Positions 9,897 through 37,503 of a stretch of DNA of 41,638 nucleotides are shown one piece after another. Numbering within the stretch: position 1 is the stretch's first letter; each line of letters opens with the position of its first letter. The position numbers and the translations under genes are program-made. Source of the DNA: a virus. The notes under the pieces are model-generated. The model made no database searches. It had not been told where the DNA came from and saw nothing but the letters and a program-made list of their open reading frames with translations. The DNA lies in the UHGV virus genome UHGV-0109010; one strand, given 5' to 3'.

Positions 9897-9963
9897 TGAA
9901 ACAGGTGAGTTGAGTTCAAACTGTAGTACAATTCTCTCCAGTTTGAACAGGAAAGAATATTCT

Positions 9964-10296
9964 ATGAACCCTTATATTTATCTTGGTGGTGCAATACTTG
10001 CAGAGGTCATTGGTACAACCTTAATGAAGTTTTCAGAAGGTTTTACACGGTTATGGCCATCTGTTGGTACAATTATTTGTTATTGTGCATCATTCTGGTT
10101 ATTAGCTCAGACGCTGGCTTATATTCCTACAGGGATTGCTTATGCTATCTGGTCAGGAGTCGGTATTGTCCTGATTAGCTTACTGTCATGGGGACTTTTC
10201 GGCCAACGGCTGGACCTGCCAGCCATTATAGGCATGATGTTGATTTGTGCCGGTGTGTTGGTTATTAATTTATTGTCACGAAGCACACCACATTAA
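9964..10296 (+). CDS. emrE: SMR-family multidrug efflux transporter EmrE (110 aa from MNPYIYL...)
   Basis: Translation MNPYIYLGGAILAEVIGTTLMKFSEGFTRLWPSVGTIICYCASFWLLAQTLAYIPTGIAYAIWSGVGIV matches E. coli EmrE. Confidence 0.92.
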   Translation: MNPYIYLGGAILAEVIGTTLMKFSEGFTRLWPSVGTIICYCASFWLLAQTLAYIPTGIAYAIWSGVGIVLISLLSWGLFGQRLDLPAIIGMMLICAGVLVINLLSRSTPH

Positions 10297-10327
10297 AAAT
10301 AATTTGTTTCTAAACGACTAAAATATG

Positions 10328-10362
10328 GAGGCTCTTATATTTATATGAGCCTCGTTTTATGC
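10328..10362 (+). terminator. Rho-independent terminator after emrE
   Basis: GAGGCTC-loop-GAGCCTC stem followed by GTTTTATGCTTTTT. Confidence 0.55.
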
Positions 10363-10552
10363 TTTTTGTTAATGTCTTTATTTTTTTATGTATTCTTTTG
10401 TGCTTTCAAGATTATGGCGTAAGAAAATTGCAATACGATTATTGTTGTATATTCAAGATAATGTGACCTTAATTGTCTTTTTAAATAAAAATTAAACAAA
10501 AATTATATCCCACCACTAAGGTTTATAAAAGCATACGTTAGCAGGTGTCACC

Positions 10553-12079
10553 ATGAAAAAAGCCATAGCATATATGCGATTTTCATCACCAGGTCAGATG
10601 TCTGGCGACTCATTAAACCGACAGAGAAGACTTATTGCTGAATGGTTAAAGGTAAATAGTGATTATTATCTTGATACCATAACATATGAAGATTTAGGAT
10701 TAAGTGCATTCAAAGGAAAGCATGCACAATCAGGAGCTTTTTCGGAATTTTTAGATGCTATAGAGCATGGTTATATATTGCCAGGAACTACATTGTTAGT
10801 TGAAAGTCTGGACAGACTTTCAAGAGAAAAAGTCGGTGAAGCGATTGAACGTCTGAAATTGATTTTGAATCACGGTATTGATGTTATAACTCTTTGCGAC
10901 AATACAGTCTATAATATTGACTCTTTGAATGAGCCATATTCATTAATAAAAGCCATACTTATAGCACAAAGGGCAAATGAAGAAAGCGAGATAAAGTCAA
11001 GTCGGGTTAAATTATCATGGAAGAAAAAACGGCAGGATGCACTGGAATCAGGTACGATTATGACGGCGTCTTGTCCGAGATGGCTCTCCTTAGATGACAA
11101 AAGAACGGCTTTTGTTCCAGACCCCGACAGGGTGAAAACTATTGAGCTAATTTTTAAACTCAGGATGGAAAGGCGCTCATTGAATGCAATAGCCAAGTAT
11201 TTAAATGATCATGCTGTAAAGAATTTCTCAGGAAAAGAAAGTGCATGGGGACCTTCTGTAATTGAAAAATTATTAGCGAATAAAGCTCTGATAGGTATAT
11301 GCGTACCTTCATATCGTGCAAGAGGTAAAGGAATAAGTGAAATCGCTGGCTATTATCCCAGAGTCATATCAGATGATTTGTTTTACGCTGTACAGGAAAT
11401 TCGGTTGGCACCTTTTGGTATTAGCAATAGTAGCAAAAATCCTATGTTGATAAATCTACTTCGAACAGTTATGAAGTGCGAGGCTTGTGGTAATACCATG
11501 ATTGTTCATGCGGTATCTGGAAGTTTGCATGGCTATTATGTTTGTCCGATGAGAAGACTGCATCGATGTGACAGGCCATCAATAAAGAGAGATTTGGTTG
11601 ATTATAATATCATTAATGAGTTGCTTTTTAATTGTAGTAAAATCCAACCAGTTGAAAACAAGAAAGATGCTAATGAAACTTTAGAGTTGAAAATTATTGA
11701 GCTCCAGATGAAAATTAATAATTTAATTGCTGCATTATCTGTTGCGCCTGAAGTTACCGCTATAGCAGAAAAAATCAGAGTATTAGATAAGGAATTACGA
11801 AGGGCTTCTGTATCATTAAAAACTTTGAAGAGTAAAGCGGTGAGTTCACTTGGTGATTTTCATGCTATTGACTTAACCAGTAAAAATGGGCGAGAGCTAT
11901 GTCGTACACTTGCCTATAAAACATTCGAAAAAATCATAATCAATACAGATAATAAAACCTGTGATATCTATTTTATGAATGGCATTGTTTTTAAACACTA
12001 TCCTTTAATGAAAACAATATCCGCCCAGCAGGCGATAAGTACTCTCAAATATATGGTTGATGGTGAGGTTTATTTTTGA
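10553..12079 (+). CDS. ybcK: Large serine recombinase (resolvase domain + recombinase domain + zinc ribbon; YbcK-like, 508 aa)
   Basis: N-terminal resolvase-type motif (AIAYMRFSSPGQ...SLNRQ), Cys cluster CEACGN...CPMRRLHRC, C-terminal coiled coil; AT-rich codon usage; same position as ybcK in DLP12. Confidence 0.8.
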   Translation: MKKAIAYMRFSSPGQMSGDSLNRQRRLIAEWLKVNSDYYLDTITYEDLGLSAFKGKHAQSGAFSEFLDAIEHGYILPGTTLLVESLDRLSREKVGEAIERLKLILNHGIDVITLCDNTVYNIDSLNEPYSLIKAILIAQRANEESEIKSSRVKLSWKKKRQDALESGTIMTASCPRWLSLDDKRTAFVPDPDRVKTIELIFKLRMERRSLNAIAKYLNDHAVKNFSGKESAWGPSVIEKLLANKALIGICVPSYRARGKGISEIAGYYPRVISDDLFYAVQEIRLAPFGISNSSKNPMLINLLRTVMKCEACGNTMIVHAVSGSLHGYYVCPMRRLHRCDRPSIKRDLVDYNIINELLFNCSKIQPVENKKDANETLELKIIELQMKINNLIAALSVAPEVTAIAEKIRVLDKELRRASVSLKTLKSKAVSSLGDFHAIDLTSKNGRELCRTLAYKTFEKIIINTDNKTCDIYFMNGIVFKHYPLMKTISAQQAISTLKYMVDGEVYF

Positions 12080-14787: not shown

Positions 14788-14924
14788 TGTTTGAGTTTTA
14801 TATGGCAGAACGTCTTCGCCACCGCTGGGGGCGTCTGCGCTTATATCGTTTCCCCGGTTCTGTTTTGACCGATTACCGAATACTGAAGAATTACGCCAAA
14901 ACCCTGACAGGAGCAGGAGTATGA
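14784..14924 (+). CDS. ylcG: YlcG-like small protein (46 aa)
   Basis: Manual translation [46 protein letters not shown]; overlaps rusA stop (ATGA). Confidence 0.6.
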
Positions 14925-15009
14925 AGTCAGAGATAACAATCAACTAATACTGTTTCGTTGATTTTTGCTTGTAATTGGCGTTCTGGTCTGATTTTTGTGG
15001 AGTAAGTTG

Positions 15010-15387
15010 ATGCGTGATATTCAGATGGTTCTTGAGCGTTGGGGAGCGTGGGCGGCTAATAATCATGAAGATGTGACCTGGTCGTCCATTGCCGCCGGTT
15101 TTAAGGGATTAATTACTTCAAAAGTAAAATCTCGCCCACAATGTTGTGACGATGACGCGATGATCATTTGCGGGTGCATGGCCCGTCTGAAAAAGAACAA
15201 CAGCGATTTGCATGATTTATTGGTGGACTATTATGTCGGCGGCATGACTTTTATGGCGCTTGCACGTAAGCATGGGCGATCTGATTGTTGGGTTGGCAGG
15301 ATGCTTCAGAAAGCTGAGGGCGTAGTGGAGGGTATGCTGATGGTGTTGGATCTCCGATTGGAGATGGATGCTGATTGTTCGAAATAA
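15010..15387 (+). CDS. quuD: Late-gene antiterminator Q (phage 82 / QuuD type)
   Basis: Translation [34 protein letters not shown]...[18 protein letters not shown] matches DLP12 QuuD. Confidence 0.88.
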
Positions 15388-15485
15388 TTAAAGGAAAAGT
15401 TGCTGTCTGATTGTCATTAGTCTAACATTTTAAATGTTGGAATCGCAACGTAGTTATTATCATATAACAGCTTGTTTCCTGATTT

Positions 15486-15515
15486 AGCCAGCCTCCCCAA
15501 AGGCTGGTTTTTTTC
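15486..15515 (+). terminator. Rho-independent terminator, probable tR' ending the short pR' transcript
   Basis: CCAGCCT-CCCCAA-AGGCTGG followed by TTTTTTT, about 100 nt downstream of Q stop. Confidence 0.65.
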
Positions 15516-15542
15516 TAATAAGTATTATTTCGGGTAGGGATT

Positions 15543-16067
15543 TTATTGTTTAACCCATAATAATTCATTGACATTGAATCCCAACTTTTGAGCGGTTCGC
15601 ACATAGTCTGCTTTTACTTTATCTGGAATAGTTGGGGTCCTTGCCAGAATCCATAGGTATTCTCTGTTCGGACCACTGACAAGAGCATACTTATACTCAT
15701 CATCCAGTTTGATTACATTATAGCCACCATAGAAGGGGCCAAAAAACGAAACCTTCAATGCTGCAGTTTTAGTATCTCCAGTAAAGTATGCTTTACCTTC
15801 GCTCTCGCTCCATTTATTTTTCGTTGGATCGTATCCACGGTTAAGTACACGAATCCCTCCGTCGTTCCGTTTTCCATAAGTAGCGCTGACCTGTTCCAGA
15901 CCACGTTCGAACCGGTTCTCGAGGCGAGCTATTTCATACCATTTTCCGAGGTAGCGGTTGGCGTCAAAATTTGTAATCGGCTGCACACCTTTAGGTGGTG
16001 TCGGGGCCTTACATGCTATAAGAGTGAAAGAGAGTGCAATGCCAGTCAACACAGGCCATAACTTCAT
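15543..16067 (-). CDS. Outer-membrane lipocalin lipoprotein (Blc-like), lipobox LIAC
   Basis: Signal peptide with lipobox; motifs NFDxxRYLGxWYEIAR and KVSFFGPFYGGYNVI parallel E. coli Blc but the sequence is diverged. Confidence 0.8.
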   Translation of the reverse strand: MKLWPVLTGIALSFTLIACKAPTPPKGVQPITNFDANRYLGKWYEIARLENRFERGLEQVSATYGKRNDGGIRVLNRGYDPTKNKWSESEGKAYFTGDTKTAALKVSFFGPFYGGYNVIKLDDEYKYALVSGPNREYLWILARTPTIPDKVKADYVRTAQKLGFNVNELLWVKQ

Positions 16068-16259
16068 AATAAATCCTGTACTTTTGATAGTTGAGAGTAA
16101 GTATGAAAGATAGATGATTACGACCGATCACTTAAAGAACTTTCATACTATATTAGGAATAGTCCATAACAGAAAAATTGTCAGTGATGACGCCAGAAAG
16201 GCAATTTATTCCGTGCACTACACAGTTTATGTGTTAATGAATTAGTCAAGGGGGAGAAT

Positions 16260-17219
16260 ATGATAAAAAAACCTGTGATTGGAATCAGCGGTTGTTTGGC
16301 CGGTTCTGCTGTTCGTTTTGATGGTGGTCACAAAAGAGCTGACTTTTTAATGGACAAATTAGTGGAATGGGTAACATTCAGACCAGTATGTCCGGAAATG
16401 GCTATAGGGCTGCCAGTTCCGCGTCCTGCTCTACGTCTTGTGCGCTCGACGCAAGGAAATATACGGATGTGTTTCAGCCACGACCAGAATGAGGATGTGA
16501 CAGAGAGAATGACAGAGTTTAGTCGTTCTTATATGGACAAATTAAAGGATGTATCGGGGTTTGTGGTTTGTGCTAAATCTCCCAGCTGTGGCATGGAGCG
16601 CGTGCGTGTCTATGATGAAAATGGTAATCGAGGTCGTAAAGATGGAGTGGGACTATTTACGAGCACTTTGATGGAAAAGTTTTCCTGGCTACCGGTTGAA
16701 GAGGATGGGCGATTACATGATCCAGTGCTTCGTGAGAATTTTGTTGAAAGAGTTTTTGCTTTGCATGAGCTCAATCACCTTTACAAGGAGAAATTATCAA
16801 GAAGAGAGTTATTAGCTTTTCATAGTCGTTATAAGCTTCAGTTGTTGGCGCATAGTCAGGCAGGCTATAAAGATATGGGACCATTTGTGGCTGCAATACA
16901 CGAGTGGGCGGACCTTGAATCATACTTTGAGGTGTATCGTGATAAGCTGATGGCGATTCTCAGAAAACCTGCATCACGTAAAAATCACACGAATGTGCTG
17001 ATGCATATACAGGGGTATTTTAGTAACTACTTAAGTACACGCCAGCGTAAAGAGTTGAGCGAGGTTATACTTAACTATCGTTCTGGCACATTACCTCTTC
17101 TTGCGCCGTTGACTCTGCTGAAGCATTATCTGGGTGAGTATCCTAATGATTACTTGCTTACACAGAATTACTTCGATCCCTATCCGGACGAACTGGCTCT
17201 AAGACTGATGGTAAATTAA
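16260..17219 (+). CDS. DUF523 (TudS-like Fe-S desulfidase) / DUF1722 fusion protein, YbgA/RudS-like
   Basis: N-terminal GISGCLAG...RPVCPEM...CAKSPSCG Cys pattern typical of DUF523; longer C-terminal helical domain; family assignment from memory. Confidence 0.6.
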   Translation: MIKKPVIGISGCLAGSAVRFDGGHKRADFLMDKLVEWVTFRPVCPEMAIGLPVPRPALRLVRSTQGNIRMCFSHDQNEDVTERMTEFSRSYMDKLKDVSGFVVCAKSPSCGMERVRVYDENGNRGRKDGVGLFTSTLMEKFSWLPVEEDGRLHDPVLRENFVERVFALHELNHLYKEKLSRRELLAFHSRYKLQLLAHSQAGYKDMGPFVAAIHEWADLESYFEVYRDKLMAILRKPASRKNHTNVLMHIQGYFSNYLSTRQRKELSEVILNYRSGTLPLLAPLTLLKHYLGEYPNDYLLTQNYFDPYPDELALRLMVN

Positions 17220-17561
17220 TTGTATGCGATATCATCCAAAAGGATGAGTTCCTGCATGCAGGATATTTACAATCGTAAAAACTACACTATGATACCCAGA
17301 GTGTCAGTTTGTATAAAAACTCTGTTTACGCTGAAGAAACAATTGAGATGCAACTTAAAGTTAGTAAACATGCCAGTCAAAATATATAATATTATGATTC
17401 CACGCAGCTATATATAATATAACAGATTGGTTTAATAATTTGTCTTTGTGAGTTAAATACATAATTTTATACTTGTGATGCAATGAAATTTTCCTTATTG
17501 TTGAACTGGCGAATATTGATTTTCCACCTATACTTACCTGGTGTAACCCCAATGATATCAG

Positions 17562-18302
17562 GTGGATAATATGCTATACATATGTTCTATCATTTTGGTG
17601 TTGAACTCGTTTGATGTCCGAATTGGTAAAGAAGATATTTTGTTTAAAAAAGGAAGTGCTGTTCTCATTGATTACAATTTAAAAGATTTTTTTTCATCAA
17701 ATATAGATCATGTAATGATCGTAGATGTTGAAGAAAAAACAGTTAATGATTTCTTTAAAAGCAACACACTCTCACCTTTTTCTGTAAGAAGGTTTTATCC
17801 GGCATACTTGATGGTGGAATGTGAAGATTTTTCATTGTTAAAGAACTTGATTGCATGCTTGAATTGTGATGGCAGAACTGTGGATTTTGTTAGAAATCAA
17901 ATATCACTTGCATGTCTTGCTATCTTATCTTCAGAGAAAATAGTGCAAAGTTTTTTATTTGGATGTCTTAATAGTTTAGGAAGTAAAGTTAAGGCTATTA
18001 TTCACACGGATATATCTGCAGCATGGAGACTTTGTGATATATCTTCAAGACTGTATCTGAGTGAAAGTCTGTTAAAAAGAAAATTAAAGCACGAAGGCTT
18101 ATCATTTAGTAAGTTAATTCTTGAAGAGCGAATGGTGATGGCGGAAAGGTTATTAAGCTACAATTTATATTCTGTTGGAAAAGTTGCTGAGATATGCAGT
18201 TATGAAAACACGTCATATTTTGTAAGTGTTTTCAGAAGGTATTTTGGTGTTCCTCCCCATCAATATTCATCAAGATTTTTTTTAGAAAAAGACATGATGT
18301 AA
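17562..18302 (+). CDS. AraC/XylS-family transcriptional regulator, AppY/EnvY-like (alternative ATG start at 17571)
   Basis: C-terminal double-HTH AraC signature (KVAEICSYENTSYFVSVFRRYFGVPPHQY); N-terminus resembles AppY; AT-rich gene and upstream region. Confidence 0.8.
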   Translation: MDNMLYICSIILVLNSFDVRIGKEDILFKKGSAVLIDYNLKDFFSSNIDHVMIVDVEEKTVNDFFKSNTLSPFSVRRFYPAYLMVECEDFSLLKNLIACLNCDGRTVDFVRNQISLACLAILSSEKIVQSFLFGCLNSLGSKVKAIIHTDISAAWRLCDISSRLYLSESLLKRKLKHEGLSFSKLILEERMVMAERLLSYNLYSVGKVAEICSYENTSYFVSVFRRYFGVPPHQYSSRFFLEKDMM

Positions 18303-18489
18303 CGTGATGCGTTTTAATGATTTTGTAATTTTCGTATTTGATAATTGTATGATGCTTTCAGCTACGCCAGAATAATCGCGGCGTTTTTCTTTTTGAATAG
18401 ATGTTCAAGCCTTACGCTAATGTAACTTCTATACCTTTCCTCTTCGTTCCGAACCGTGTACACCATCCGTTATTTGCGGAGGTGAGGCT

Positions 18490-18705
18490 ATGAAATCCAT
18501 GGATAAGTTAACAACGGGCATTGCCTACGGCACCTCCGCAGGCAGTGCTGGCTACTGGTTTTTACAGCTGCTCGATAAAGTCACGCCCTCACAGTGGGCA
18601 GCAATAGGTGTGCTGGGTAGCTTGGTATTTGGCCTGCTGACGTACCTGACAAACCTTTATTTCAAGATTAAAGAAGATAAGCGCAAGGCTGCGAGAGGTG
18701 AATAA
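18490..18705 (+). CDS. essD: Pinholin, phage 21 S-type with dual start (MKSM)
   Basis: Translation [71 protein letters not shown] matches S21 pinholin. Confidence 0.9.
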
Positions 18706-19202
18706 TGCCTCCATCATTACGAAAAGCCGTTGCTGCTGCTATTGGTGGCGGAGCAATTGCTATAGCATCAGTGTTAATCACTGGCCCAAGTGGTAACGAT
18801 GGTCTGGAAGGTGTCAGCTACATACCATACAAAGATATCGTTGGCGTATGGACTGTATGTCACGGGCATACAGGAAAAGACATCATTCCCGGTAAAACGT
18901 ATACCGAAGCAGAATGCAAAGCCCTCCTGAATAAAGACCTTGCCACGGTAGCCAGACAAATTAACCCGTACATCAAAGTCGATATACCGGAAACAACGCG
19001 CGGCGCTCTTTACTCGTTCGTCTATAACGTGGGCGCAGGCAATTTCAGAACATCTACTCTTCTTCGCAAAATAAACCAGGGCGATATCAAGGGCGCATGT
19101 GACCAGCTACGTCGCTGGGCATACGCTGGCGGTAAGCAATGGAAAGGCCTGATGACTCGTCGTGAGATTGAGCGTGAGGTCTGTTTGTGGGGGCAACAAT
19201 GA
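18705..19202 (+). CDS. rrrD: SAR (signal-arrest-release) endolysin, lysozyme
   Basis: N-terminal Gly/Ala-rich SAR helix ([20 protein letters not shown]) followed by lysozyme domain; start overlaps holin stop. Confidence 0.9.
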
Positions 19203-19666
19203 GCAGGGTAACCGCGATTATCTCCGCTCTGGTTATCTGCATCATCGTCTGCCTGTCATGGGCTGTTAATCATTACCGTGATAATGCAATCGCCTACAAA
19301 GAACAGCGTGATAACAAGGCCAGTGAACTGGAGAAGGCGAACGCCACCATTACTGACATGCAGCAGCGCCAGCGTGATGCTGATGCACTCGATGATAAAT
19401 ACACGAAGGAGTTAGCTGATGCGAAAGCTGAAAATGATGCTCTTCGGCGCAAGCTTGATAATGGTGGTCGGGTGCTCGTCAAAGGAAAATGCCCTGTGCC
19501 ATCCTCAGCCGAAACCTCCAGCGCCTCCGGCATGGGCAATGATGCCACCGTCGAACTCTCTCCAGTTGCTGGACGAAACGTTCTCGGTATCCGGGACGGA
19601 ATTATCCGCGACCAAACAGCACTGAGAACGCTTCAGGAATACATCAGGACGCAATGCCTTCGATGA
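19199..19666 (+). CDS. rzpD: Rz inner-membrane spanin
   Basis: N-terminal TM helix, coiled-coil body; ATGA overlap with endolysin stop; contains embedded Rz1. Confidence 0.85.
19419..19625 (+). CDS. rzoD: Rz1 outer-membrane lipoprotein spanin, embedded in +1 frame of Rz
   Basis: Lipobox VVGC, Pro-rich segment [11 protein letters not shown], fully nested within Rz. Confidence 0.85.
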
Positions 19667-20253: not shown

Positions 20254-20416
20254 GCCATCACAAAAGCCATTCCCTACAGAGTGGCTTTGGTAATGGCTTA
20301 TACCCTACACGGGATAACTTAACTGATATCCCTTTTAACGGATAAACGGAGCCAACAATGGCAGAGAATGTCGGCATTATGGCAGTTAAATTTGGATAAA
20401 TCGGAGATTAGTACAT

Positions 20417-20767
20417 ATGCCGCCACGAATCCCGAAAGCCTGCCGTGCTCGAGGTTGCCGTAATACCACCACTGACCCGTCAGGCTATTGCGAAAGCCAC
20501 AAAAGCGAAGGCTGGAAGCAATACAAACCTGGACAATCCCGTCATCAGCGCGGCTACGGTTCGAAGTGGGACAGTATCCGCGCGCGTGTCCTGAAGCGTG
20601 ACAAAGGCCTGTGTCAGTTATGTCTGCGTTCTGGTGTGGTGCGTGAGGCGAAAACTGTTGACCACATCATCCCTAAAGCGCATGGCGGCACTGATGCTGA
20701 CAGTAATCTGCAGAGTCTGTGCTGGCCGTGTCATAAGGCGAAGACGGCCCGTGAACGGTTAAAGTGA
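20417..20767 (+). CDS. HNH endonuclease (terminase-associated)
   Basis: Cys pairs CRARGC...C and CQLCLR...CWPCH with HIIP...HGG HNH motif; immediately upstream of terminase genes. Confidence 0.85.
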   Translation: MPPRIPKACRARGCRNTTTDPSGYCESHKSEGWKQYKPGQSRHQRGYGSKWDSIRARVLKRDKGLCQLCLRSGVVREAKTVDHIIPKAHGGTDADSNLQSLCWPCHKAKTARERLK

Positions 20768-20783
20768 TAATAATTCTCAACTG

Positions 20784-20853
20784 TCTGAGGGGAGGGGCGG
20801 GTCAAATCCCTGTGACCTGACGTCTTCCGGACTGCCCGCCCCATCGTTTTTTT
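20784..20853. other. Putative cos / packaging-recognition region: 8-bp inverted repeat GGGGCGGG...CCCGCCCC followed by T-run
   Basis: Inverted repeat and T-run read directly; lies between HNH and terS where HK97-like phages place cos; cleavage site itself not identifiable. Confidence 0.35.
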
Positions 20854-20892
20854 ATACCCGCGAAAAATGAAATTTAACCAGGAGTGCCGCAT

Positions 20893-21378
20893 ATGGCTGG
20901 AACGGCGGGGCGTTCCGGGCGTCGCCCCAAGCCAACGGCGCGCAAGGCGCTGGCCGGAAACCCCGGCAAGCGAGCCCTGAATAAAGATGAACCTGTTTTT
21001 ACGCCCATCAAAGGTGTTGAGCCACCGGAGTGGTTCGCTGAAGAAGATCTCCCTCTCGCCACGATCATGTGGCAACTGACAACCAAAGAACTCTGCGGTC
21101 AGGGCCTGCTGTGCGTGACTGACCTGGCGGTACTTGAGCGGTGGTGTGTGGCCTATGAATTCTGGCGACGTGCCGTGAAAAATATTGCCAGACAGGGCAA
21201 CACCATCACCGGTGCAATGGGCGGCATGGTCAAAAATCCGGAGCTGACCGCCAAAAAAGAACAGGAGTCCGAGATGAGCAGCACGGGGGCAATGCTCGGA
21301 CTCGACCCCAGCAGCCGCCAGCGTCTGATTGGCCTGGCGGGGAAGAAGAAAGCCACTAACCCGTTTCTGACAATCTGA
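20893..21378 (+). CDS. Terminase small subunit, P27 family
   Basis: N-terminus [27 protein letters not shown] typical of P27-family TerS; directly precedes TerL. Confidence 0.85.
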
Positions 21379-21391
21379 AAATCATCGAATC

Positions 21392-23125
21392 ATGAGCCGG
21401 AAATCTTACCCCAACGTAAATGCAGCCAATCAGTATGCCCGTGATGTCGTGCGCGGAAAGATTGTGGCCTGCCAGTTTGTGATTCAGGCCTGCCAGCGCC
21501 ATCTTGATGACCTGATGGCGGAAAAAAGTAAGTCGTTTCGTTACCGCTTCGACAAGGACCTGGCTGAACGGGCCGCCAAATTTATTCAGCTGTTGCCGCA
21601 TACCAAGGGTGAGTGGGCATTCAAACGGATGCCCATCACGCTGGAGCCGTGGCAGCTCTTTGTGATCTGCTGTGCGTTTGGCTGGGTCAATAAAGGTACC
21701 CGGCTGCGCCGCTTCCGGGAGGTGTATACCGAAATCCCCCGTAAGAACGGCAAATCGGCAATCTCTGCCGGTGTCGCCCTGTATTGTTTTGCCTGTGATA
21801 ACGAGTTTGGCGCGGAAGTGTATTCCGGTGCCACGACAGAGAAACAGGCGTGGGAAGTCTTTCGCCCGGCGCGACTGATGTGTAAACGCACACCCATGCT
21901 GACGGAAGCGTTCGGGATTGAGGTTAACGCCTCAAACATGAACCGTCCGGAGGATGGCGCGCGGTTTGAACCGCTGATCGGTAACCCCGGTGATGGTTCA
22001 TCACCCCACTGTGCGGTGGTGGATGAATATCACGAGCACGCCACCGATGCGCTTTATACCACGATGCTTACCGGGATGGGGGCGCGACGTCAGCCACTGA
22101 TGTGGGCCATCACCACCGCCGGGTACAACATTGAGGGGCCGTGCTACGACAAGCGGCGGGAAGTTATCGAGATGCTCAACGGTTCGGTACCCAACGATGA
22201 ACTGTTCGGGATCATCTATACCGTTGACGAAGGCGATGACTGGACCGACCCGCAGGTGCTGGAAAAAGCCAACCCGAATATTGGCGTGTCGGTTTATCGC
22301 GAATTTTTGTTAAGTCAGCAGCAGCGTGCGAAAAATAACGCCCGTCTGGCAAACGTCTTTAAAACAAAACACCTCAATATCTGGGTGTCGGCGCGTTCGG
22401 CGTATTTCAACCTGGTGAGCTGGCAGAGCTGCGAGGATAAATCACTGACCCTTGAGCAGTTCGAGGGGCAGCCGTGCATTCTGGCCTTTGACCTGGCGCG
22501 TAAGCTGGATATGAACAGCATGGCGCGACTTTATACCCGCGAGATTGACGGTAAAACGCATTACTACAGTGTGGCCCCGCGTTTCTGGGTACCGTATGAC
22601 ACGGTGTACAGCGTCGAGAAAAATGAAGATCGCCGGACAGCCGAACGCTTTCAGAAATGGGTGGAAATGGGCGTTCTGACTGTTACCGCTGGTGCGGAGG
22701 TGGATTATCGCTACATCCTCGAGGAGGCCAAAGCGGCGAACAAAATCAGCCCGGTCAGTGAGTCACCCATCGACCCCTTCGGGGCGACCGGGCTGTCGCA
22801 TGACCTTGCTGATGAAGACCTGAACCCCATCACCATCATTCAGAACTACACCAACATGTCCGATCCGATGAAAGAGCTGGAAGCGGCGATTGAATCGGGG
22901 CGCTTTCATCATGACGGCAATCCCATCATGACCTGGTGTATCGGCAACGTGGTCGGCAAAACCATTCCGGGTAACGATGATGTGGTGAAGCCTGTCAAGG
23001 AGCAGGCGGAAAACAAAATCGATGGTGCGGTTGCACTGATTATGGCGATCGGTCGGGCAATGCTCAAAGAACCCGACGATTTCCTCTCATCTCTTGATCC
23101 GGACGATGTTCTCTTAATTCTATGA
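21392..23125 (+). CDS. Terminase large subunit (ATPase + nuclease), 577 aa
   Basis: Walker A-like region and overall size/order; follows TerS, precedes portal. Confidence 0.9.
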
Positions 23126-23283
23126 AATCACTAATTGCTGATGTTATCGGGTTGGCTGGTTTTGGCCTGCTTACGTGCGGGTTTTACCTGCAGTTTGGTA
23201 TGGCTCCGGCTCTGATGCTGTCCGGCGGTTTACTGCTGGTGGGCGCACTGGCTATGGCCAGAAGGGGGACGCGTGCTGCTTGA
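23122..23283 (+). CDS. Small predicted membrane protein (53 aa) between terminase and portal
   Basis: Manual translation [53 protein letters not shown], two hydrophobic segments; ATGA overlap with TerL stop. Confidence 0.45.
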
Positions 23284-24499
23284 TGCTCTGTTCAGAAGTA
23301 AATCACTGGAGAATCCTTCCACCCCGATAACCGGGGATGCCGTTGATACTGATGGGCTGTTCCGGGCAGACGTTTATGTCAGTCCTGAAACTGCGATGAA
23401 ACTGGCTGCGGTGTATTCCTGTATCTATGTCCTGTCTTCCAGCCTTGCCCAGATGCCGTTGCATGTTATGCGCAGGCACAATGGGAAGGTTGAGCCCGCA
23501 CGCGATCATCCGGCGTTTTATCTGGTTCATGATGAGCCCAATACCTGGCAAACCAGTTACAAATGGCGCGAACTGAAGCAACGTCACATCCTTGGCTGGG
23601 GGAATGGGTATACCTGGGTGAAACGTAATCGTCGCGGTGAAGTCATATCCCTGGATTGCTGTATGCCGTGGGAAACGACGCTGATGAATACTGGTGGCCG
23701 ATACACCTACGGTTTGTACAACGAATATGGGGCGTTTGCGATCAGCCTCGACGATATGATCCACATCCGTGCGCTGGGTAATAATCAGAAGATGGGGCTG
23801 AGTCCGATTATGCAACATGCCGAAACAATAGGCATGGGGATGAGCGGTCAGAAATACACAGAAAGCTTCTTCAGCGGTAATGCCCGTCCGGCGGGGATAG
23901 TATCCGTTAAAAGCGGACTCAATAAGGACAGCTGGGGCTGGCTTAAAGATCAGTGGCAGAAGGCATCGCAGGCGTTACGCAGCCAGGAAAACAAAACCAT
24001 GCTGCTGCCAGCCGATCTGGATTACAAGGCACTGACTGTGTCGCCAGTTGACGCTCAGATCATTGACATGATGAAACTGAACCGTTCAATGATTGCCGGT
24101 ATTTTCAATATTCCTGCGCACATGATTAATGACCTCGAAAAAGCCACCTTCTCCAATATTTCTGCGCAGGCGATTCAGTTTGTCCGCTACACGATGATGC
24201 CGTGGGTGACGAACTGGGAGCAGGAGCTTAACCGTCGCTTGTTTACCCGCGCTGAGTTAGCCGCCGGGTATTACGTCAGGTTCAATCTGACGGGGCTTTT
24301 ACGCGGAACTCCGCAGGAGCGCGCGCAATTCTATCACTTCGCTATTACCGATGGATGGATGAGCCGTAATGAGGCCCGCGCATTCGAGGATATGAATCCG
24401 GTTGAAGGGCTGGATGAGATGCTGGTAAGCGTGAATGCTGCTAACCCGGCAGGAGATTTTAAGCCCCCAAAAAAAGATGAGGGAAAAACCAATGAATGA
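23273..24499 (+). CDS. Portal protein, HK97 family (GTG start)
   Basis: 408 aa in canonical position after terminase; family assigned from size and position. Confidence 0.85.
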   Translation: MLLDALFRSKSLENPSTPITGDAVDTDGLFRADVYVSPETAMKLAAVYSCIYVLSSSLAQMPLHVMRRHNGKVEPARDHPAFYLVHDEPNTWQTSYKWRELKQRHILGWGNGYTWVKRNRRGEVISLDCCMPWETTLMNTGGRYTYGLYNEYGAFAISLDDMIHIRALGNNQKMGLSPIMQHAETIGMGMSGQKYTESFFSGNARPAGIVSVKSGLNKDSWGWLKDQWQKASQALRSQENKTMLLPADLDYKALTVSPVDAQIIDMMKLNRSMIAGIFNIPAHMINDLEKATFSNISAQAIQFVRYTMMPWVTNWEQELNRRLFTRAELAAGYYVRFNLTGLLRGTPQERAQFYHFAITDGWMSRNEARAFEDMNPVEGLDEMLVSVNAANPAGDFKPPKKDEGKTNE

Positions 24500-25094
24500 C
24501 CGTGAAATCCGTTGTTACAGCGGTGAGGTGCGTGCTGAGCGGCATGACGATAACCCTGCGCACATTATCGGTTATGGATCGGTGTTTGACTGTCGTTCTG
24601 AGCTGATATTTGGTTCATTCCGCGAAATCATCCGGCCCGGCGCTTTTGACGATGTGCTTGGTGATGATGTACGCGCACTGTTTAACCACGATCCTAATTT
24701 TATTCTTGGGCGTAGTGCAGCAGGCACGCTGAATCTTTCAGTTGATGAGCGCGGATTGCGCTATGACATCCAGGCTCCGGAGACACAGACCATTCGTGAT
24801 CTGGTGCTGGCCCCGATGCAACGTGGAGATATTAACCAGTCATCTTTTGCTTTCCGTGTCGCCCGTGACGGCGAGGAGTGGTATCAGGATGAGGACGGGG
24901 TTGTTATTCGCGAGATAACCCGCTTTTCCCGTCTGCTGGATGTCAGTCCTGTGACATATCCTGCCTATCAGGAGGCTGACTCGGCTGTTCGCTCCATGAA
25001 AGCATGGCAGGAGGCGCGCAACAGCGGCGCGCTACAGAAAGCCATTAATCAACGTATGGCGCGTGAGCGCGTCCTGACCCTTCTTAACGCGTAA
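24492..25094 (+). CDS. Prohead protease, HK97 family (start at MNDREIR)
   Basis: About 200 aa between portal and capsid; family assigned from size and position. Confidence 0.8.
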   Translation: MNDREIRCYSGEVRAERHDDNPAHIIGYGSVFDCRSELIFGSFREIIRPGAFDDVLGDDVRALFNHDPNFILGRSAAGTLNLSVDERGLRYDIQAPETQTIRDLVLAPMQRGDINQSSFAFRVARDGEEWYQDEDGVVIREITRFSRLLDVSPVTYPAYQEADSAVRSMKAWQEARNSGALQKAINQRMARERVLTLLNA

Positions 25095-25104
25095 AGGAAA
25101 CATC

Positions 25105-26334
25105 ATGAAACTGCATGAACTGAAACAGAAACGTAATACTATCGCAACTGACATGCGTGCCCTGAATGAAAAAATTGGTGATAACGCATGGACGGAAGAG
25201 CAGCGCACTGAGTGGAACAAAGCAAAATCCGAACTGGAAGCGCTTGATGAACGAATTGCACGCGAAGAAGAACTGCGTCGTCAGGATCAGGCGTACATTG
25301 AAAGCAATGAGGAAGAGCAGCGTCAGAATCTTGATCCGGAAAACAATCCGCAACAGGATGAGAAACGAGCTCAGGTTTTTGATAAGTGGATGCGTCACGG
25401 TGCCAGTGAGCTGACATCAGAAGAACGAAAGGCGTTGCGTGAACTTCGTGCCCAGGGCGTAGCTCAGGATGAAAAGGGCGGATATACCGTACCAGAAACA
25501 TTCCTGGCGAAAGTTGTTGAGAAGATGAAGTCCTACGGTGGCATCGCCAGTGTGGCGCAGATTCTTACCACTTCTGACGGTCGCACTATGGAGTGGGCAA
25601 CAGCTGATGGTACTTCCGAAGTTGGTGTTCTGCTGGGCGAAAATGAAGAAGCCGGTGAAGAAGACACCGATTTCGGTATGGGAAGTCTTGGGGCGCTCAA
25701 AATGACATCGAAAATCATTCGTGTGTCTAATGAGTTGCTGCAGGACAGCGCGATCGATATGGAAGCTTATCTTGCCCGTCGTATTGCTGAACGTATTGGT
25801 CGTGGTGAAGCCCGTTATCTGATTCAGGGAACTGGTGCTGGTACGCCTAAACAACCCAAAGGGCTGGTCGCATCTGTGACCGGCACAACACAGACTGCCG
25901 CGGCAAATACGGTGAAGTGGCAGGAAATTCTGGCTCTGAAACACAGCATTGATCCTGCATATCGTCGCGGGCCGAAATTCCGCCTGGCGTTTAACGATAA
26001 TACGCTGAAACTGATCAGTGAGATGGAAGACGGTCAGGGACGCCCTTTATGGTTGCCGGATATTGTTGGTGTGGCACCTGCTTCAGTGTTGAATGTACCG
26101 TATGTCATTGATCAGGAAATTGATGATATCGGGGCGGGTAAAAAATTCATGTTCTGTGGTGACTTTGATCGCTTCATTATCCGTCGTGTGCGATACATGA
26201 TTCTTAAACGTCTGGTTGAGCGTTACGCGGAATATGATCAGACCGGTTTTCTGGCCTTCCATCGTTTTGACTGTATCCTGGAAGACACCTCTGCCATTAA
26301 AGCGCTGGTGGGGAAAGGTAGCGTTGGTGGTTGA
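25105..26334 (+). CDS. Major capsid protein, HK97 fold with N-terminal coiled-coil delta domain
   Basis: 409 aa; N-terminal coiled-coil about 100 aa then capsid-fold body; canonical position. Confidence 0.9.
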   Translation: MKLHELKQKRNTIATDMRALNEKIGDNAWTEEQRTEWNKAKSELEALDERIAREEELRRQDQAYIESNEEEQRQNLDPENNPQQDEKRAQVFDKWMRHGASELTSEERKALRELRAQGVAQDEKGGYTVPETFLAKVVEKMKSYGGIASVAQILTTSDGRTMEWATADGTSEVGVLLGENEEAGEEDTDFGMGSLGALKMTSKIIRVSNELLQDSAIDMEAYLARRIAERIGRGEARYLIQGTGAGTPKQPKGLVASVTGTTQTAAANTVKWQEILALKHSIDPAYRRGPKFRLAFNDNTLKLISEMEDGQGRPLWLPDIVGVAPASVLNVPYVIDQEIDDIGAGKKFMFCGDFDRFIIRRVRYMILKRLVERYAEYDQTGFLAFHRFDCILEDTSAIKALVGKGSVGG

Positions 26335-26358
26335 TTAGTCTTTTTACGTAATACAGCA

Positions 26359-26402
26359 CGCCGCGTAATGCGGTTTTTTTGTGCCCGCGTTCTGGCGGGC
26401 AC
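26359..26402 (+). terminator. Two hairpins after the capsid gene (weak terminator CCGC-GTAAT-GCGG + T7, then 8-bp stem GTGCCCGC/GCGGGCAC)
   Basis: Read directly; likely partial terminator / mRNA stabiliser after the highly expressed capsid gene. Confidence 0.45.
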
Positions 26403-26412
26403 AGGAGGTTTT

Positions 26413-26736
26413 ATGCTGTTAAAAATGGAAGAGATTAAGCTTCAGCTCCGTCTGGATGATGATTTCTCTGATGAAGATGAGTTGCTTGAACTGCTTGGTA
26501 AGGCCGCTCAGAGTCGTACGGAAAACTTCCTTAACCGTAAGTTGTATGCAACCGCAGATGACAGGCCTGCGGATGATCCTGATGGGCTTGTGATATCTGA
26601 TGATGTGAAGCTGGCGCTTCTGCTACTTGTCAGCCATTTCTACGAAAACCGCTCAACGGTTACAGACGTTGAGAAAATGGAGTTGCCAATGAGTTTTAAC
26701 TGGTTGGTTGTTCCTTATCGCCTTATACCACTATGA
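26413..26736 (+). CDS. Head-tail connector protein (gp6-like)
   Basis: About 107 aa acidic protein after capsid; SD AGGAGG. Confidence 0.7.
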   Translation: MLLKMEEIKLQLRLDDDFSDEDELLELLGKAAQSRTENFLNRKLYATADDRPADDPDGLVISDDVKLALLLLVSHFYENRSTVTDVEKMELPMSFNWLVVPYRLIPL

Positions 26737-27143
26737 AAATTCGTCAGGCGCAGACCAGCGCAACCTACATTCTGCCGGACCCCGGCGAACTGAATAAACG
26801 CGTCCTGATCCGCCAGCGGGTGGATATGCCCGCGGATAACTTTGGCGTGGAGCCTCAATACCCGGTTGCGTTCCGGGCATGGGCGAAGGTTATCCAGACC
26901 AGTGCCACCACCTGGCAGGAAACCGCGCAGACCGGAGACGCCATCACCCATTACATCACCATTCGTTACCGCCGGGGGATCACCGCTGATTATGAGGTGG
27001 TCTGCGGTGACAGTGTGTACCGGGTGAAACGTCAGCGCGATCTGAACGGAGCGCGGCGCTTTCTGCTGCTGGAGTGTACGGAGCTGGGCGAATGTAGGCA
27101 GAGTCACGGAGGCAACAATGACGACTTCCTTTTTGCACGTTGA
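26733..27143 (+). CDS. Head closure / head-tail adaptor protein
   Basis: Size and position in head-completion block. Confidence 0.65.
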   Translation: MKIRQAQTSATYILPDPGELNKRVLIRQRVDMPADNFGVEPQYPVAFRAWAKVIQTSATTWQETAQTGDAITHYITIRYRRGITADYEVVCGDSVYRVKRQRDLNGARRFLLLECTELGECRQSHGGNNDDFLFAR

Positions 27144-27624
27144 TTTTCAGCAGCCCGCGGAGATGCGCTTTAACCGCGCCCATGTCCGGCGGGCGTTTGT
27201 CACGATTGGTCAGCGTCATATGCGTGATGCCCGTCGGCTGGTGATGCGCCGTGCGCGGTCGGCACCGGGTGAAAACCCCGGTTATCAGACCGGACGCCTG
27301 GCTCGCTCAATTGGTTACATGGTACCCAGAGCCAGTAAACATCGCCCTGGTTTTATGGCACGTATAGCCCCTAACCAGCGTAATGGAGAGGGAAACCGCC
27401 GTATCACCGGTGATTTTTATCCGGCTTTTTTGTTCTATGGCGTGAGGCGAGGGGCAAAGCGTCGTCGCGGCCATCATCGTGGTGCATCCGGTGGCAGCGG
27501 CTGGCGACTGGCTCCACGTAATAACTTCATGGTGGAAACTCTTGAAAAGAACCGCAGCTGGACACGCTATTTTCTGGCGCGGGAATTGCGTAAATCACTG
27601 AAGCCGGAGCGACGACACAGATGA
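27118..27624 (+). CDS. HK97 gp10-family head-tail joining protein
   Basis: Basic 168-aa protein in head-tail joining block. Confidence 0.6.
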   Translation: MTTSFLHVDFQQPAEMRFNRAHVRRAFVTIGQRHMRDARRLVMRRARSAPGENPGYQTGRLARSIGYMVPRASKHRPGFMARIAPNQRNGEGNRRITGDFYPAFLFYGVRRGAKRRRGHHRGASGGSGWRLAPRNNFMVETLEKNRSWTRYFLARELRKSLKPERRHR

Positions 27625-28181
27625 AACTGACGCCCGTTATTGCTGCACTGCGTGCCCGCTGTCCGTATTTTGAAAACCGGGTGGCAGGCGCGGCACAGTT
27701 CAAAAATCTGCCGGAGGTCGGAAAGCTGAGACTCCCGGCGGCGTATGTGGTACCGGGTGATGACTCTCCGGGAGAAAACAAAAGCCAGACCGACTACTGG
27801 CAGGAGCTGAAAGAGGGCTTCTCCGTGGTTGTCATACTGAGTAACGGGCGTGATGAGCGCGGTCAGTTTGCCTCGTATGATGTGGTGGACGATGTCCGGC
27901 AGATGCTCTTTAAGGCTCTGCTGGGCTGGAACCCGGAAGCGTGTGGTAACCCGATTACCTATGACGGCGGCACGCTGCTGGATCTGAATCGTCATGAGCT
28001 GATTTATCAGTTCGATTTTTCGGTCATCAGCGAGCTGACTGAAGACGATACCCGCCAGCAGGATGATCTGAACAGTCTGGATGAACTGCAAACGCTGGCG
28101 ATTGATGTTGATTATCTCGAGCCCGGTAACGGGCCTGACGGCGATATCGAACATCACACCGAAATAACCCTTCCTTCCTGA
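27621..28181 (+). CDS. Tail completion / tail terminator-like protein (Mu-like module)
   Basis: 186 aa immediately upstream of sheath gene block. Confidence 0.55.
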   Translation: MKLTPVIAALRARCPYFENRVAGAAQFKNLPEVGKLRLPAAYVVPGDDSPGENKSQTDYWQELKEGFSVVVILSNGRDERGQFASYDVVDDVRQMLFKALLGWNPEACGNPITYDGGTLLDLNRHELIYQFDFSVISELTEDDTRQQDDLNSLDELQTLAIDVDYLEPGNGPDGDIEHHTEITLPS

Positions 28182-28189
28182 GGATCCTC

Positions 28190-28360
28190 ATGTTTGTCAA
28201 ACCTGTTAAAGGGCGGTCAGTGCCTGACCCTGCCCGCGGCGACCTTTTGCCCGCCGAAGGGCGAAATGTTGACGAGAACAACTACTGGCTGCGCCGTGAA
28301 GCAGCGGGTGATATCCGGCGCGTGAATAAAAAGGTGAATACCGATGACGATAAGCTTTAA
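28190..28360 (+). CDS. Small conserved phage protein preceding tail sheath (56 aa)
   Basis: Manual translation MFVKPVKGRSVPDPARGDLLPAEGRNVDENNYWLRREAAGDIRRVNKKVNTDDDKL; short gene in the position seen before Mu-like sheath genes. Confidence 0.45.
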   Translation: MFVKPVKGRSVPDPARGDLLPAEGRNVDENNYWLRREAAGDIRRVNKKVNTDDDKL

Positions 28361-29840
28361 CACCATTCCGTCGAATACGCTGGTTCCGTTGTTTTATGCG
28401 GAAATGGATAACCAGGCGGCGAATACTGCACAGGACAGCGGAGCATCGCTGCTGATTGGTCATGCCAATAACGGTGCAGAGATTGTTGCCAACAGTCTGG
28501 TACTGATGCCGTCGGCAGACTATGCACGCCAGATTTGTGGTGCGGGAAGTCAGCTGGCGCGTATGGTCGAGGCTTATCGCCAGACCGACCCGTTTGGCGA
28601 GCTGTATGTGATTGCCGTTCCTGAATCCACAGGCGCGGCGGCAACAGTTACGCTGACGGTGACCGGGGCAGCAACCGAAACCGGCACGGTGAATGTTTAT
28701 GTGGGACGTACCCGCGTGCAGGCACCGGTGACCAACGGCGATAACGTCGCGACGATTGCCAGCAGTATCAAAGATGCCATCAATGCCGTTCCGGCCCTGC
28801 CGTTTACGGCCTCATCTTCGGCTGGTGTGGTTACATTGACCGCTCGCCATAAGGGGCTTTGCGGGAATGAAATTCCTGTCAGCCTCAATTACTACGGCTT
28901 CGGTGGGGGCGAAGTGCTGCCAGCGGGCGTACAGATTGCCGTGGCGACGGGGACCGCCGGAACGGGCGCTCCGGTTCTCACCGGCGCGGTGGCTGCAATG
29001 GCGGATGAGCCGTTTGATTATATCGGTCTGCCGTTCAACGACACGGCCTCTGTTAACACGCTGGTGACCGAGATGAACGATACCAGCGGTCGCTGGAGCT
29101 ATGCGCGTCAGCTGTATGGTCATGTGTATACGGCAAAGGCCGGCACACTGTCAGAACTGGTGAACGCAGGTGACCAGTTTAACCAGCAGCACATCACCCT
29201 GGCGGGGTACGAAAAAGAGACCCAGACGCCTGCCGACGAGCTGGCAGCCAGCCGTACCGCCCGCGCAGCGGTGTTTATCCGCAACGATCCGGCACGTCCC
29301 ACGCAGACCGGTGAGATGGTGGGTATGCTGCCTGCGCCGAAGGGGAAACGGTTCACGATGACCGAACAACAGACCCTGCTGTCTCATGGCGTGGCAACGG
29401 CGTATGTCGAAAGCGGGGTACTGCGCATTCAGCGTGATGTCACCACGTACAGGAAAAACGCTTACGGGGTTGCGGATAACAGCTACCTCGACAGTGAGAC
29501 ACTGCATACCAGCGCGTATGTACTGCGCAAACTGAAATCCGTCATTACCAGTAAGTACGGGCGTCACAAGCTTGCCAGTGACGGTACCCGCTTTGGTCCC
29601 GGTCAGGCGATTGTCACCCCGGCGGTGATCAAAGGGGAACTGCTGGCAACCTACCGTCAGCTTGAGCGTGCGGGGATCGTGGAAAACTACGAACTGTTTA
29701 AGCAGTACCTGGTTGTGGAGCGTGATGCCAGCGATCCGAACCGCCTGAACACGCTGTTCCCGCCTGACTATGTTAACCAGTTGCGTGTCTTTGCCGTGGT
29801 TAACCAGTTCCGTCTTCAGTATTCAGAGGAGTCTGCATAA
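28344..29840 (+). CDS. Tail sheath protein (Mu gpL-like), 498 aa
   Basis: Size, composition and position followed by tube, chaperone and tape measure genes. Confidence 0.85.
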   Translation: MTISFNTIPSNTLVPLFYAEMDNQAANTAQDSGASLLIGHANNGAEIVANSLVLMPSADYARQICGAGSQLARMVEAYRQTDPFGELYVIAVPESTGAAATVTLTVTGAATETGTVNVYVGRTRVQAPVTNGDNVATIASSIKDAINAVPALPFTASSSAGVVTLTARHKGLCGNEIPVSLNYYGFGGGEVLPAGVQIAVATGTAGTGAPVLTGAVAAMADEPFDYIGLPFNDTASVNTLVTEMNDTSGRWSYARQLYGHVYTAKAGTLSELVNAGDQFNQQHITLAGYEKETQTPADELAASRTARAAVFIRNDPARPTQTGEMVGMLPAPKGKRFTMTEQQTLLSHGVATAYVESGVLRIQRDVTTYRKNAYGVADNSYLDSETLHTSAYVLRKLKSVITSKYGRHKLASDGTRFGPGQAIVTPAVIKGELLATYRQLERAGIVENYELFKQYLVVERDASDPNRLNTLFPPDYVNQLRVFAVVNQFRLQYSEESA

Positions 29841-32442: not shown

Positions 32443-32502
32443 TGAAAAATTAATCTGTTAATGAGTCCCACTCCGGTGGGATTTTTTATGTACGGAGTTT
32501 AT

Positions 32503-37500: not shown

Positions 37501-37503
37501 TCC

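Follow-up and report, generated by a model that had tools for sequence, protein, structure and literature searches.

A composite cassette of lipocalin, rudS and AraC-type regulator genes between the late antiterminator and lysis genes of a lambdoid prophage

The virus genome UHGV-0109010, a 41,638-nt stretch of DNA that we refer to in its entirety as the window, carries three genes at positions 15388–18489, between the late antiterminator gene Q and the holin gene: an antisense blc-like lipocalin gene, a gene of the rudS family, and a gene for an AraC/XylS-type regulator, here called araC. We read this block, with a probability of about 0.8, as a composite moron (lysogenic-conversion) cassette that occupies the Q/pR′/tR′-lysis slot of a lambdoid prophage and consists of two parts of different origin. 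The first part would be a divergent blc-rudS pair derived from an enterobacterial chromosome, and the second an AT-rich AraC/XylS gene of the AppY/PatE/Psr group, the product of which most likely acts in trans on host stress promoters. The features on which this reading draws are as follows (G+C content, GC; amino acids, aa; expectation value, E; helix-turn-helix, HTH; insertion sequence, IS).

15010–15387, + strand: Q late antiterminator, QuuD type (Pfam Phage_antitermQ PF06530, E = 1e-50)
15486–15517, + strand: tR′-like intrinsic terminator with a 9-bp G+C-rich stem, a 6-nt loop and a run of seven T
15543–16067, − strand: blc-like outer-membrane lipoprotein lipocalin, 174 aa (Lipocalin_2), antisense to the late operon
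16068–16259, no strand: divergent blc-rudS spacer, 34% GC, the presumed site of the promoters for blc and rudS
16260–17219, + strand: rudS, TudS/DUF523 and DUF1722 fusion, 319 aa (PF04463, PF08349)
17571–18302, + strand: AraC/XylS regulator, 243 aa from ATG, or 246 aa from GTG 17562 (HTH_18, HTH_AraC)
17687–17694, + strand: T8 homopolymer in araC, about codons 39–41, a frequent frameshift site
15370–18478, no strand: segment exchangeable with K-12 DLP12, which has nmpC::IS5 there (blastn)
18490–19666, + strand: lysis cassette, with S21-type holin 18490–18705 (Pfam Phage_holin_2_1, E = 2e-35), endolysin 18705–19202 (Phage_lysozyme, E = 9e-46) and Rz/Rz1 spanins at about 19199–19666, in agreement with the annotation of an identical prophage

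The program-made list of open reading frames (ORFs) holds all three genes at the places given in the first-pass annotation of this DNA, and their identities and orientation, as well as the order of Q, terminator, cassette and holin, agreed with profile searches and with the K-12 alignment. When the window was compared with the K-12 genome (NC_000913) by blastn, homology to DLP12 stopped at 15369, 18 bases ahead of the Q stop codon, and restarted at 18479, 11 bases ahead of the holin start; the break falls at the cassette borders and supports the limits of 15388–18489 proposed earlier. K-12 has nmpC::IS5 in the matching interval, confirming that the cassette takes the place of nmpC, and the same slot between Q/tR′ and the lysis genes holds stx in the Shiga toxin (Stx) phages. 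Unlike these cargoes, the present block contains no toxin or porin and has one of its three genes antisense; profile searches and Rfam detected no toxin, porin or tRNA gene in it. Its presence or absence between conserved flanking genes of related phages is the behavior of a moron, and its composition departs from that of the surrounding phage genes (GC 0.31–0.44 versus 0.47–0.49). Because the values are 0.314 for araC and 0.32–0.40 for the spacers, and 0.438 for blc and 0.434 for rudS, compared with 0.47 for Q, 0.49 for the holin gene and 0.486 for the entire window, the description of the block as AT-rich is apt for the regulator gene and spacers and holds only mildly for blc and rudS. Searches with profile hidden Markov models from Pfam, NCBIfam and PHROG placed all three domain assignments far above chance.

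The rudS product joins a 2-thiouracil desulfurase domain (PF04463, formerly domain of unknown function DUF523; residues 7–149, E = 3e-40) to a DUF1722 domain (PF08349; residues 192–309, E = 2e-40; phrog_3275). This is the architecture of RudS, the TudS-DUF1722 fusions that remove the sulfur of 4-thiouridine (s4U) from tRNA (Jamontas et al., NAR 2024, PMC11417400). All RudS variants tested in that work reduced s4U in E. coli tRNA, including RudS_vir (gp66, H3V29_gp66) of phage 1H12, overexpression of which in E. coli lowered tRNA s4U (PMC11417400). RudS_vir and the window protein are both 319 aa long, share 93% identity, the TudS and DUF1722 domains and Cys12, Cys44 and Cys110, and are separated by 21 mostly conservative substitutions; their loci are alike in having Q, an antisense blc, an AraC gene and a holin gene as neighbors, and differ in backbone, the window gene lying in a prophage with an argU site and a contractile-tail structural module. 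The tie drawn earlier between DUF523 and thiouracil/thiouridine desulfidases was therefore well founded, given the shared architecture and the activity of a 93% identical protein on tRNA s4U.

The three cysteines occupy the cluster-ligand positions listed for RudS_vir (Table 1, PMC11417400); Cys12 and Cys44 align with Cys10 and Cys43 of TudS, and the N-terminal motifs align with the sequence of the TudS crystal structure. The motifs CPE, PRP and SPSC contain E46, R55, S107 and S109, which were placed by a numbering offset to RudS_KT (E51, R60, S111, S113) and not by alignment; mutation of the catalytic Glu, Arg and two Ser of RudS_KT abolished activity (PMC11417400). As judged from its sequence, the window protein is a tRNA 4-thiouridine desulfidase of the RudS family. 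It would carry a [4Fe-4S] cluster on Cys12, Cys44 and Cys110, use Glu46, Arg55, Ser107 and Ser109 for catalysis, and swap sulfur for oxygen in the 4-thiouridine at tRNA position 8, and the resulting loss of s4U would lessen near-ultraviolet (near-UV, UVA) cross-linking of tRNA and the growth delay that goes with it.

The lipocalin likewise bears out its earlier description as a diverged, Blc-like outer-membrane protein encoded on the antisense strand. It matches Pfam Lipocalin_2 (E = 7e-44) and phrog_2809 and scores 316 bits with the NCBIfam Blc subfamily model NF007786, above the cut-off of 267. Read by eye, its N-terminus is a lipoprotein signal, MKLWPVLTGIALSFTLIAC19-K, with the lipobox L-I-A-C19 and, at +2, a Lys that is no inner-membrane retention residue, as expected of a Blc lipoprotein. 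The protein is 97% identical to the 1H12 copy and about 80% identical to the rudS-adjacent lipocalins of Enterobacter, Leclercia and Citrobacter sedlakii, compared with 60% identity to K-12 Blc (b4149). These values speak against orthology to the chromosomal, ampC-adjacent blc, and on them the window protein is classed as a paralogue of chromosomal Blc. It shares the Lipocalin_2 fold and the lipoprotein signal with both chromosomal Blc and the blc product of gut lambda phages, in which blc is a moron found in >50% of temperate members (Mathieu et al., Nat Commun 2020, PMC6969025).

The regulator matches HTH_18 (E = 3.5e-13), HTH_AraC (E = 2.6e-10) and phrog_1450. Its best NCBIfam model is YdeO, at 123 bits versus a cut-off of 348, and over nearly its full length it is 31% identical to AppY and 29% identical to EnvY. 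The earlier label "AppY/EnvY-like" thus stands as a statement of distant, same-clade kinship and fails as one of orthology, against which speak the identities for AppY and EnvY and the score for YdeO; other prophage regulators are closer, and by sequence the protein belongs to the AppY/YdeO/GadX-Rns/ToxT group. In a large protein collection the family is narrow and essentially restricted to E. coli, with groups at 81–88%, 64%, 56% and 49–53% identity. A 52% identical relative belongs to a 247-aa group that adjoins paoABCD, a region that we take to lie next to OI-8 on the genome map. A review places the prophage regulator PatE of enterohaemorrhagic E. coli (EHEC) in OI-8, and the 247-aa group is probably PatE, an identification that depends on position and on the presumed location of OI-8.

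A structure model of the regulator, computed from 8 input sequences (predicted local distance difference test score, pLDDT, 82.9), gave full-length Foldseek matches to CsvR, Rns and ToxT (E 3e-10 to 6e-7) at a global template modeling (TM) score of about 0.4, a low value that is likely caused by differing relative domain orientation and because of which we take the resemblance to Rns and ToxT at the level of architecture only. The C-terminal domain of the model superposes on GadX with TM 0.81–0.86, and phmmer ranked the relatives likewise, its ToxT match covering residues 22–233. AppY (DLP12), PatE, PsrA and PsrB (EHEC O157) are, like the window protein, about 245 aa long with a C-terminal double HTH and encoded by very AT-rich genes on lambdoid prophages; these characterized relatives act on host regulons. 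The window gene differs from theirs in its position at the Q-holin junction rather than at a prophage end, and in being frequently frameshifted at its T8 tract.

The first-pass annotation regarded the combination as unusual for a late region, a view that the frequency of the block does not sustain. The 3.1-kb block matched 1156 of 5426 complete E. coli genomes (21%), was covered over ≥80% of its length in 992 of these, and was nearly always present in a single copy; blc, as said, is found in >50% of gut lambda phages. The report on RudS describes E. coli as being without TudS/RudS homologues (PMC11417400), which holds for K-12 and not for about a fifth of sequenced strains (1156/5426). The suggestion that the recurrence of the same three-gene set be checked in other prophages was borne out: matches to the block were found in 12 phage genomes on deposit, among them 1H12, the Lambda_ev series and IdasGreatGrand, an isolated phage, and the order Q, blc (−), rudS, araC, holin was found in 80/80 IMG/VR contigs, namely those retrieved with the RudS protein. 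At least four prophage backbones carry the block, always between Q and holin; carriers include an argU-site lambda-like prophage (strain ST648), a Qin-site prophage (E. coli HS), 1H12-like Jouyvirus prophages with a different early region, and a Qin-site copy in BL21(DE3) truncated by IS3. These occurrences also bear on the scenario, raised earlier as one that would overturn the cassette, that the block is a piece of host chromosome with a separate prophage fragment on either side. In other Enterobacterales, blc and rudS do have close chromosomal relatives; the block, however, sits at the same place between Q and holin in 1H12, the Lambda_ev series, IdasGreatGrand and several backbones, among them isolated phages, and the window runs without a break, as a single prophage, from integrase to tail genes, so that the scenario is refuted and retains next to no probability.

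IS1, IS2, IS3 and IS5 interrupt the cassette in several genomes, and K-12 has IS5 in nmpC at the corresponding place; the slot, being AT-rich, has the look of a target for IS elements. In BL21(DE3), rudS is cut by IS3 to a 49-codon stub (locus L009, 5873–7212).

We located the probable source of the blc-rudS pair by scanning one genome per species in other Enterobacterales, which yielded 62 chromosomal rudS loci (protein identity 66–77%). In 41 of the 62, rudS is preceded by a divergent lipocalin gene whose product is about 80% identical to the phage lipocalin. In Citrobacter sedlakii the lipocalin gene directly adjoins rudS, with a spacer as long as that of the phage and no regulator, while in Enterobacter cloacae an MlrA-like MerR gene and a transthyretin-like gene stand between lipocalin and rudS, the blc/mlrA-like/transthyretin-like/rudS locus having the same divergent orientation as in the phage. 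In Salmonella, orf242 (MerR-type) and orf319 (RudS_ST) lie in pathogenicity island SPI-2, and orf319 is controlled by a MerR-family regulator (PMC11417400). Across the Salmonella and Enterobacter loci RudS is 70–77% and the lipocalin about 80% identical to the phage proteins; relative to the chromosomal loci, the genes for the MerR-type regulator and the transthyretin-like protein are gone from the phage version, which has an unrelated AraC gene downstream; no relative of that gene occurs in the 62 loci. The phage blc-rudS spacer, though conserved among phage versions, could not be aligned with that of C. sedlakii, and no ancestral operator can therefore be traced. By its sequence, the blc-rudS pair looks captured from an enterobacterial chromosomal locus.

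The regulator gene has a separate distribution. Relatives with 64% and 56% identity stand alone after two other, unrelated Q families (PF03589, PF06323), without blc or rudS (loci L074, 4045–5735, and L075, 4056–6134, the latter with an S21-type holin next). AraC genes thus recur at the Q-holin junction as an arrangement in its own right. The simplest history would be that the AraC gene was resident before an S21-type holin and that blc-rudS, without the MerR gene, was then inserted after tR′.

Citrobacter braakii ATCC 51113 has two rudS copies. One (L010, 2234–5960) ends an operon with a cyclopropane-fatty-acid-synthase-like gene, DUF2878 and DUF3833, and the other (L011, 5001–5960) has on one side an AI-2E-family transporter gene, followed further out by a GGDEF gene, and on the opposite side a GGDEF-EAL gene.

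Selection on the cassette was gauged by the ratio of nonsynonymous to synonymous substitution rates (dN/dS) in comparisons of the versions from the window, 1H12 and HS, in which dS reached 0.37. The ratios were 0.06–0.12 for blc, 0.11–0.21 for rudS and 0.26 for araC, and this overall range of 0.06–0.26 is similar to those of Q (0.05–0.12) and the holin gene (0.07–0.12). The cassette genes are thus under purifying selection with their function maintained. Functionless passenger DNA in decay, for which one might invoke the IS1, IS2, IS3 and IS5 insertions, the truncated BL21(DE3) copy and the often frameshifted regulator, is very unlikely against these ratios, which contradict it for blc and rudS; both genes are full length in essentially all 80 IMG/VR contigs, the block persists in viable phages and in 21% of genomes, and a 93% identical RudS is enzymatically active in vivo.

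The regulator gene is often frameshifted at the T8 tract at 17687–17694. By exact probe matches, 242/534 complete genomes with this allele have T8 and 232/534 have the frameshifted T7. A second T8 tract in the same gene (18276–18283) served as a control and was T8 in 379 and T7 in 6 of 585 genomes. Among 59 IMG/VR cassettes the first tract was T7 in 7, T6 in 2 and T9 in 1, while the control tract did not vary in length. Homopolymer sequencing error was considered as the cause of T7 and ruled out by this control tract of equal length in araC; since it hardly varies, the T7 allele is real. In a T7 genome the NCBI annotation pipeline PGAP flags araC as frameshifted, and blc and rudS are intact there. 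A 195-aa, N-terminally truncated araC ORF is common in the protein collection. On a tree of the 59 cassettes built by average linkage (UPGMA), tract length changed about 8 times on at least 5 single-nucleotide polymorphism backgrounds. The T7 genomes listed resemble one another in size (about 4.7–4.9 Mb, with two exceptions), about half of them carry the cassette at a similar map position, and T7 copies in complete genomes look largely clonal. The T8/T7 variation could represent phase variation or repeated selected loss.

Next, we considered how the cassette might be expressed. Q, which has an alternative upstream start (TTG 14995) and is annotated as a 378-bp gene in an identical prophage, distantly matches Q21 structures (E = 2e-7). 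A terminator scan of 14900–18800 identified 15486–15517 as the sole terminator-like site; the 87 nt around it fold with −24 kcal/mol (z = −3.8 versus shuffles), and the terminator is kept in phage 1H12 and in the Qin-site prophage of E. coli HS. The stretch from Q to the terminator is conserved among the phage cassette versions, and its K-12 match is partial. Two candidates for pR′ precede the terminator.

15359–15388, + strand: candidate pR′ no. 1, TGGAGA-18-AATAAT, weak sigma-70-like site, 9/12 in a consensus scan
15400–15428, + strand: candidate pR′ no. 2, TTGCTG-17-TAACAT, weak sigma-70-like site, read from the sequence

The first lies inside the part that can be aligned with K-12 DLP12, where its −35-like bases are conserved; a further weak promoter-like site was found by the consensus scan in the blc-rudS spacer (16091–16118, +). 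The Q21 structure paper gives no promoter sequence by which a Q-binding element could be placed. The order conforms to the layout of a Q-dependent late operon, with Q, then the terminator, and rudS and araC co-oriented with the holin gene. In a lysogen, pR′ transcripts would end at tR′, with rudS and araC depending on promoters of their own that are probably weak or silenced, and blc would be transcribed from a promoter of its own, against the direction of late transcription, which would make Blc a lysogen-expressed envelope protein. After induction, Q-modified RNA polymerase would run through tR′ and the 3 kb to the holin gene, so that the late transcript would take in rudS and the regulator gene and pass through blc in antisense. 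The polymerase would have to cross the block because homology with other prophages, and with it any lysis promoter in common, picks up again just 11 bases ahead of the holin start. Expression of rudS and araC by Q read-through would thus follow from geometry.

The predicted pR′-tR′ transcript (15434–15520, +) contains a 5′ stem-loop in addition to the terminator (z = −3.8) and is conserved in cassette-bearing phages. StxS of the Stx phages offers a precedent for a small RNA from this interval, and by analogy the transcript could be a small RNA expressed in the lysogen. At gathering thresholds Rfam reported the argU tRNA alone in the window, and its matches in the Q-terminator region were sub-threshold and at chance level, so no known small RNA family can be assigned to the transcript.

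Expressed from the Q-dependent late transcript, rudS may instead serve mainly as an auxiliary gene of the lytic cycle. Its product would strip s4U from host tRNA during phage development, and UVA, which in sunlight often comes together with the prophage-inducing UV, could then not cross-link tRNA, set off the stringent response and curtail late protein synthesis. We regard this as rather improbable, and as clearly less likely than a moron acting in the lysogen. The gene does have the sense orientation of the late operon, with tR′ before it, the holin gene after it and no terminator predicted ahead of the holin gene, and it is intact in isolated, viable phages; moreover, overexpression of RudS_KT lessened the UVA-triggered growth delay of E. 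coli (PMC11417400). Its chromosomal counterpart, however, serves the host in light- or stress-linked loci, the 20–30 minutes of late development may be too short to demodify a stable tRNA pool, and the neighboring blc, being antisense, is clearly no late gene.

Alternatively, the three genes could form one local regulon, in which the AraC protein has replaced the MerR/MlrA-like regulator at the blc and rudS promoters and perhaps responds to a fatty-acid-like ligand. Blc-type lipocalins bind lipids, the model and sequence of the regulator resemble CsvR, Rns and ToxT over the full length, the solved Rns and ToxT entries hold bound fatty acids, and in Enterobacter a regulator gene separates blc from rudS where the phage has none. 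We nonetheless consider this unlikely, because the junction also carries relatives of the regulator in places where blc and rudS are absent, C. sedlakii has blc-rudS without a regulator, about 43% of allele carriers have a frameshifted regulator next to intact blc and rudS, and the characterized relatives AppY, PatE and PsrA/B act on host regulons. An anti-phage defense or superinfection-exclusion module is highly improbable. The slot is a known hot spot for accessory genes, and tRNA is a frequent battleground between phage and host; yet none of the three proteins matched a PADLOC model, and each has a better-supported assignment.

Several observations weigh against the composite-moron reading or its parts. 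Although RudS_vir was well expressed, it desulfidated tRNA to a lesser extent than other RudS proteins, and of all of them it shortened the lag on 4-thiouracil the most (PMC11417400), which together leave the preferred in vivo substrate of RudS_vir unsettled. The promoter candidates are weak consensus matches that are as frequent in shuffled sequence, and the scan of 14900–18800 predicted no terminator after rudS or araC, so that separate transcription units for the cassette genes are at most putative. The regulator appears dispensable, since it is frameshifted in 232/534 genomes and deleted or interrupted in some others, and it may make no contribution in many carriers; its targets are proposed from relatives at 31–52% identity. 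Literature searches on lipocalin, YbgA and prophage found nothing, and those on a lipocalin-LitR light regulon nothing usable, so that a shared function of blc and rudS in light stress is argued purely from synteny.

A more far-reaching idea, which we hold to be doubtful, is that the block is a portable near-UV/light-stress module, combining a Q-boosted s4U eraser with an AraC regulator that slippage in the T8 tract would turn on and off. Prophages induced by UV would in this way remove the thiolation of host tRNA, and UVA would no longer arrest translation while they grow lytically; slippage among T8, T7, T6 and T9 would make the effect of the regulator on the host heritable yet reversible.

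The cassette itself is an ordinary and common composite moron, with parts that were largely known already, since the near-identical counterpart of one gene has been tested, another gene is a listed moron, and the third belongs to a known regulator class. Useful additions are the probable composite origin, the solo AraC relatives at the Q-holin junction, the finding that rudS is common in E. coli, and the tract prone to frameshifts; none of them would surprise a specialist, and the view of phage late regions is unchanged. The locus illustrates how the Q-holin slot can capture a chromosomal stress unit of two genes, which is there joined to a resident AraC-type gene and then spreads over unrelated lambdoid backbones. 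Because about a fifth of complete E. coli genomes carry rudS, tRNA s4U levels and UVA responses may differ with prophage content, and the choice of strain could affect s4U-based measurements, including growth delay under UVA, cross-linking through s4U and the sequencing of tRNA; in BL21(DE3) only a truncated remnant is left, and K-12 has nmpC in the slot. The frameshift allele provides a natural on/off comparison for finding the targets of the regulator.

Two short contigs (L062, L067) of a metagenome-assembled genome, JARKOR01, of "Candidatus Nanosynbacter" (Saccharibacteria) carry Q, blc, rudS, araC and holin, with cassette proteins that are 94–100% identical; they are almost certainly a binning contaminant.

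Overall, the window is a lambdoid prophage at the argU tRNA (tRNA 875–948; integrase 967–2130) with early and lysis genes of the DLP12 type. A further accessory block, at 9910–12079 (GC 33–40%) between the replication genes and the nin region, holds emrE (a small multidrug efflux pump) and the large serine recombinase gene ybcK, as in DLP12. The right arm (20346–38800) differs from the lambda-like arm of otherwise identical argU-site prophages, and among the matches listed no genome matched the window beyond 20346. It encodes an HNH endonuclease (20417–20767), TerL, portal, an HK97-type capsid, a tail sheath (28344–29840) and a tail-collar fibre, and from these predicted products it is a structural module of the contractile-tail type, to which early and lysis genes of lambdoid kind are joined. 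The low-GC (31–41%) end of the window carries genes for an Acyl_transf_3 acyltransferase (38819–40003, −), possibly an O-antigen-modifying moron, and for a second tyrosine integrase (40541–41638, −), which suggests an adjacent or nested element.

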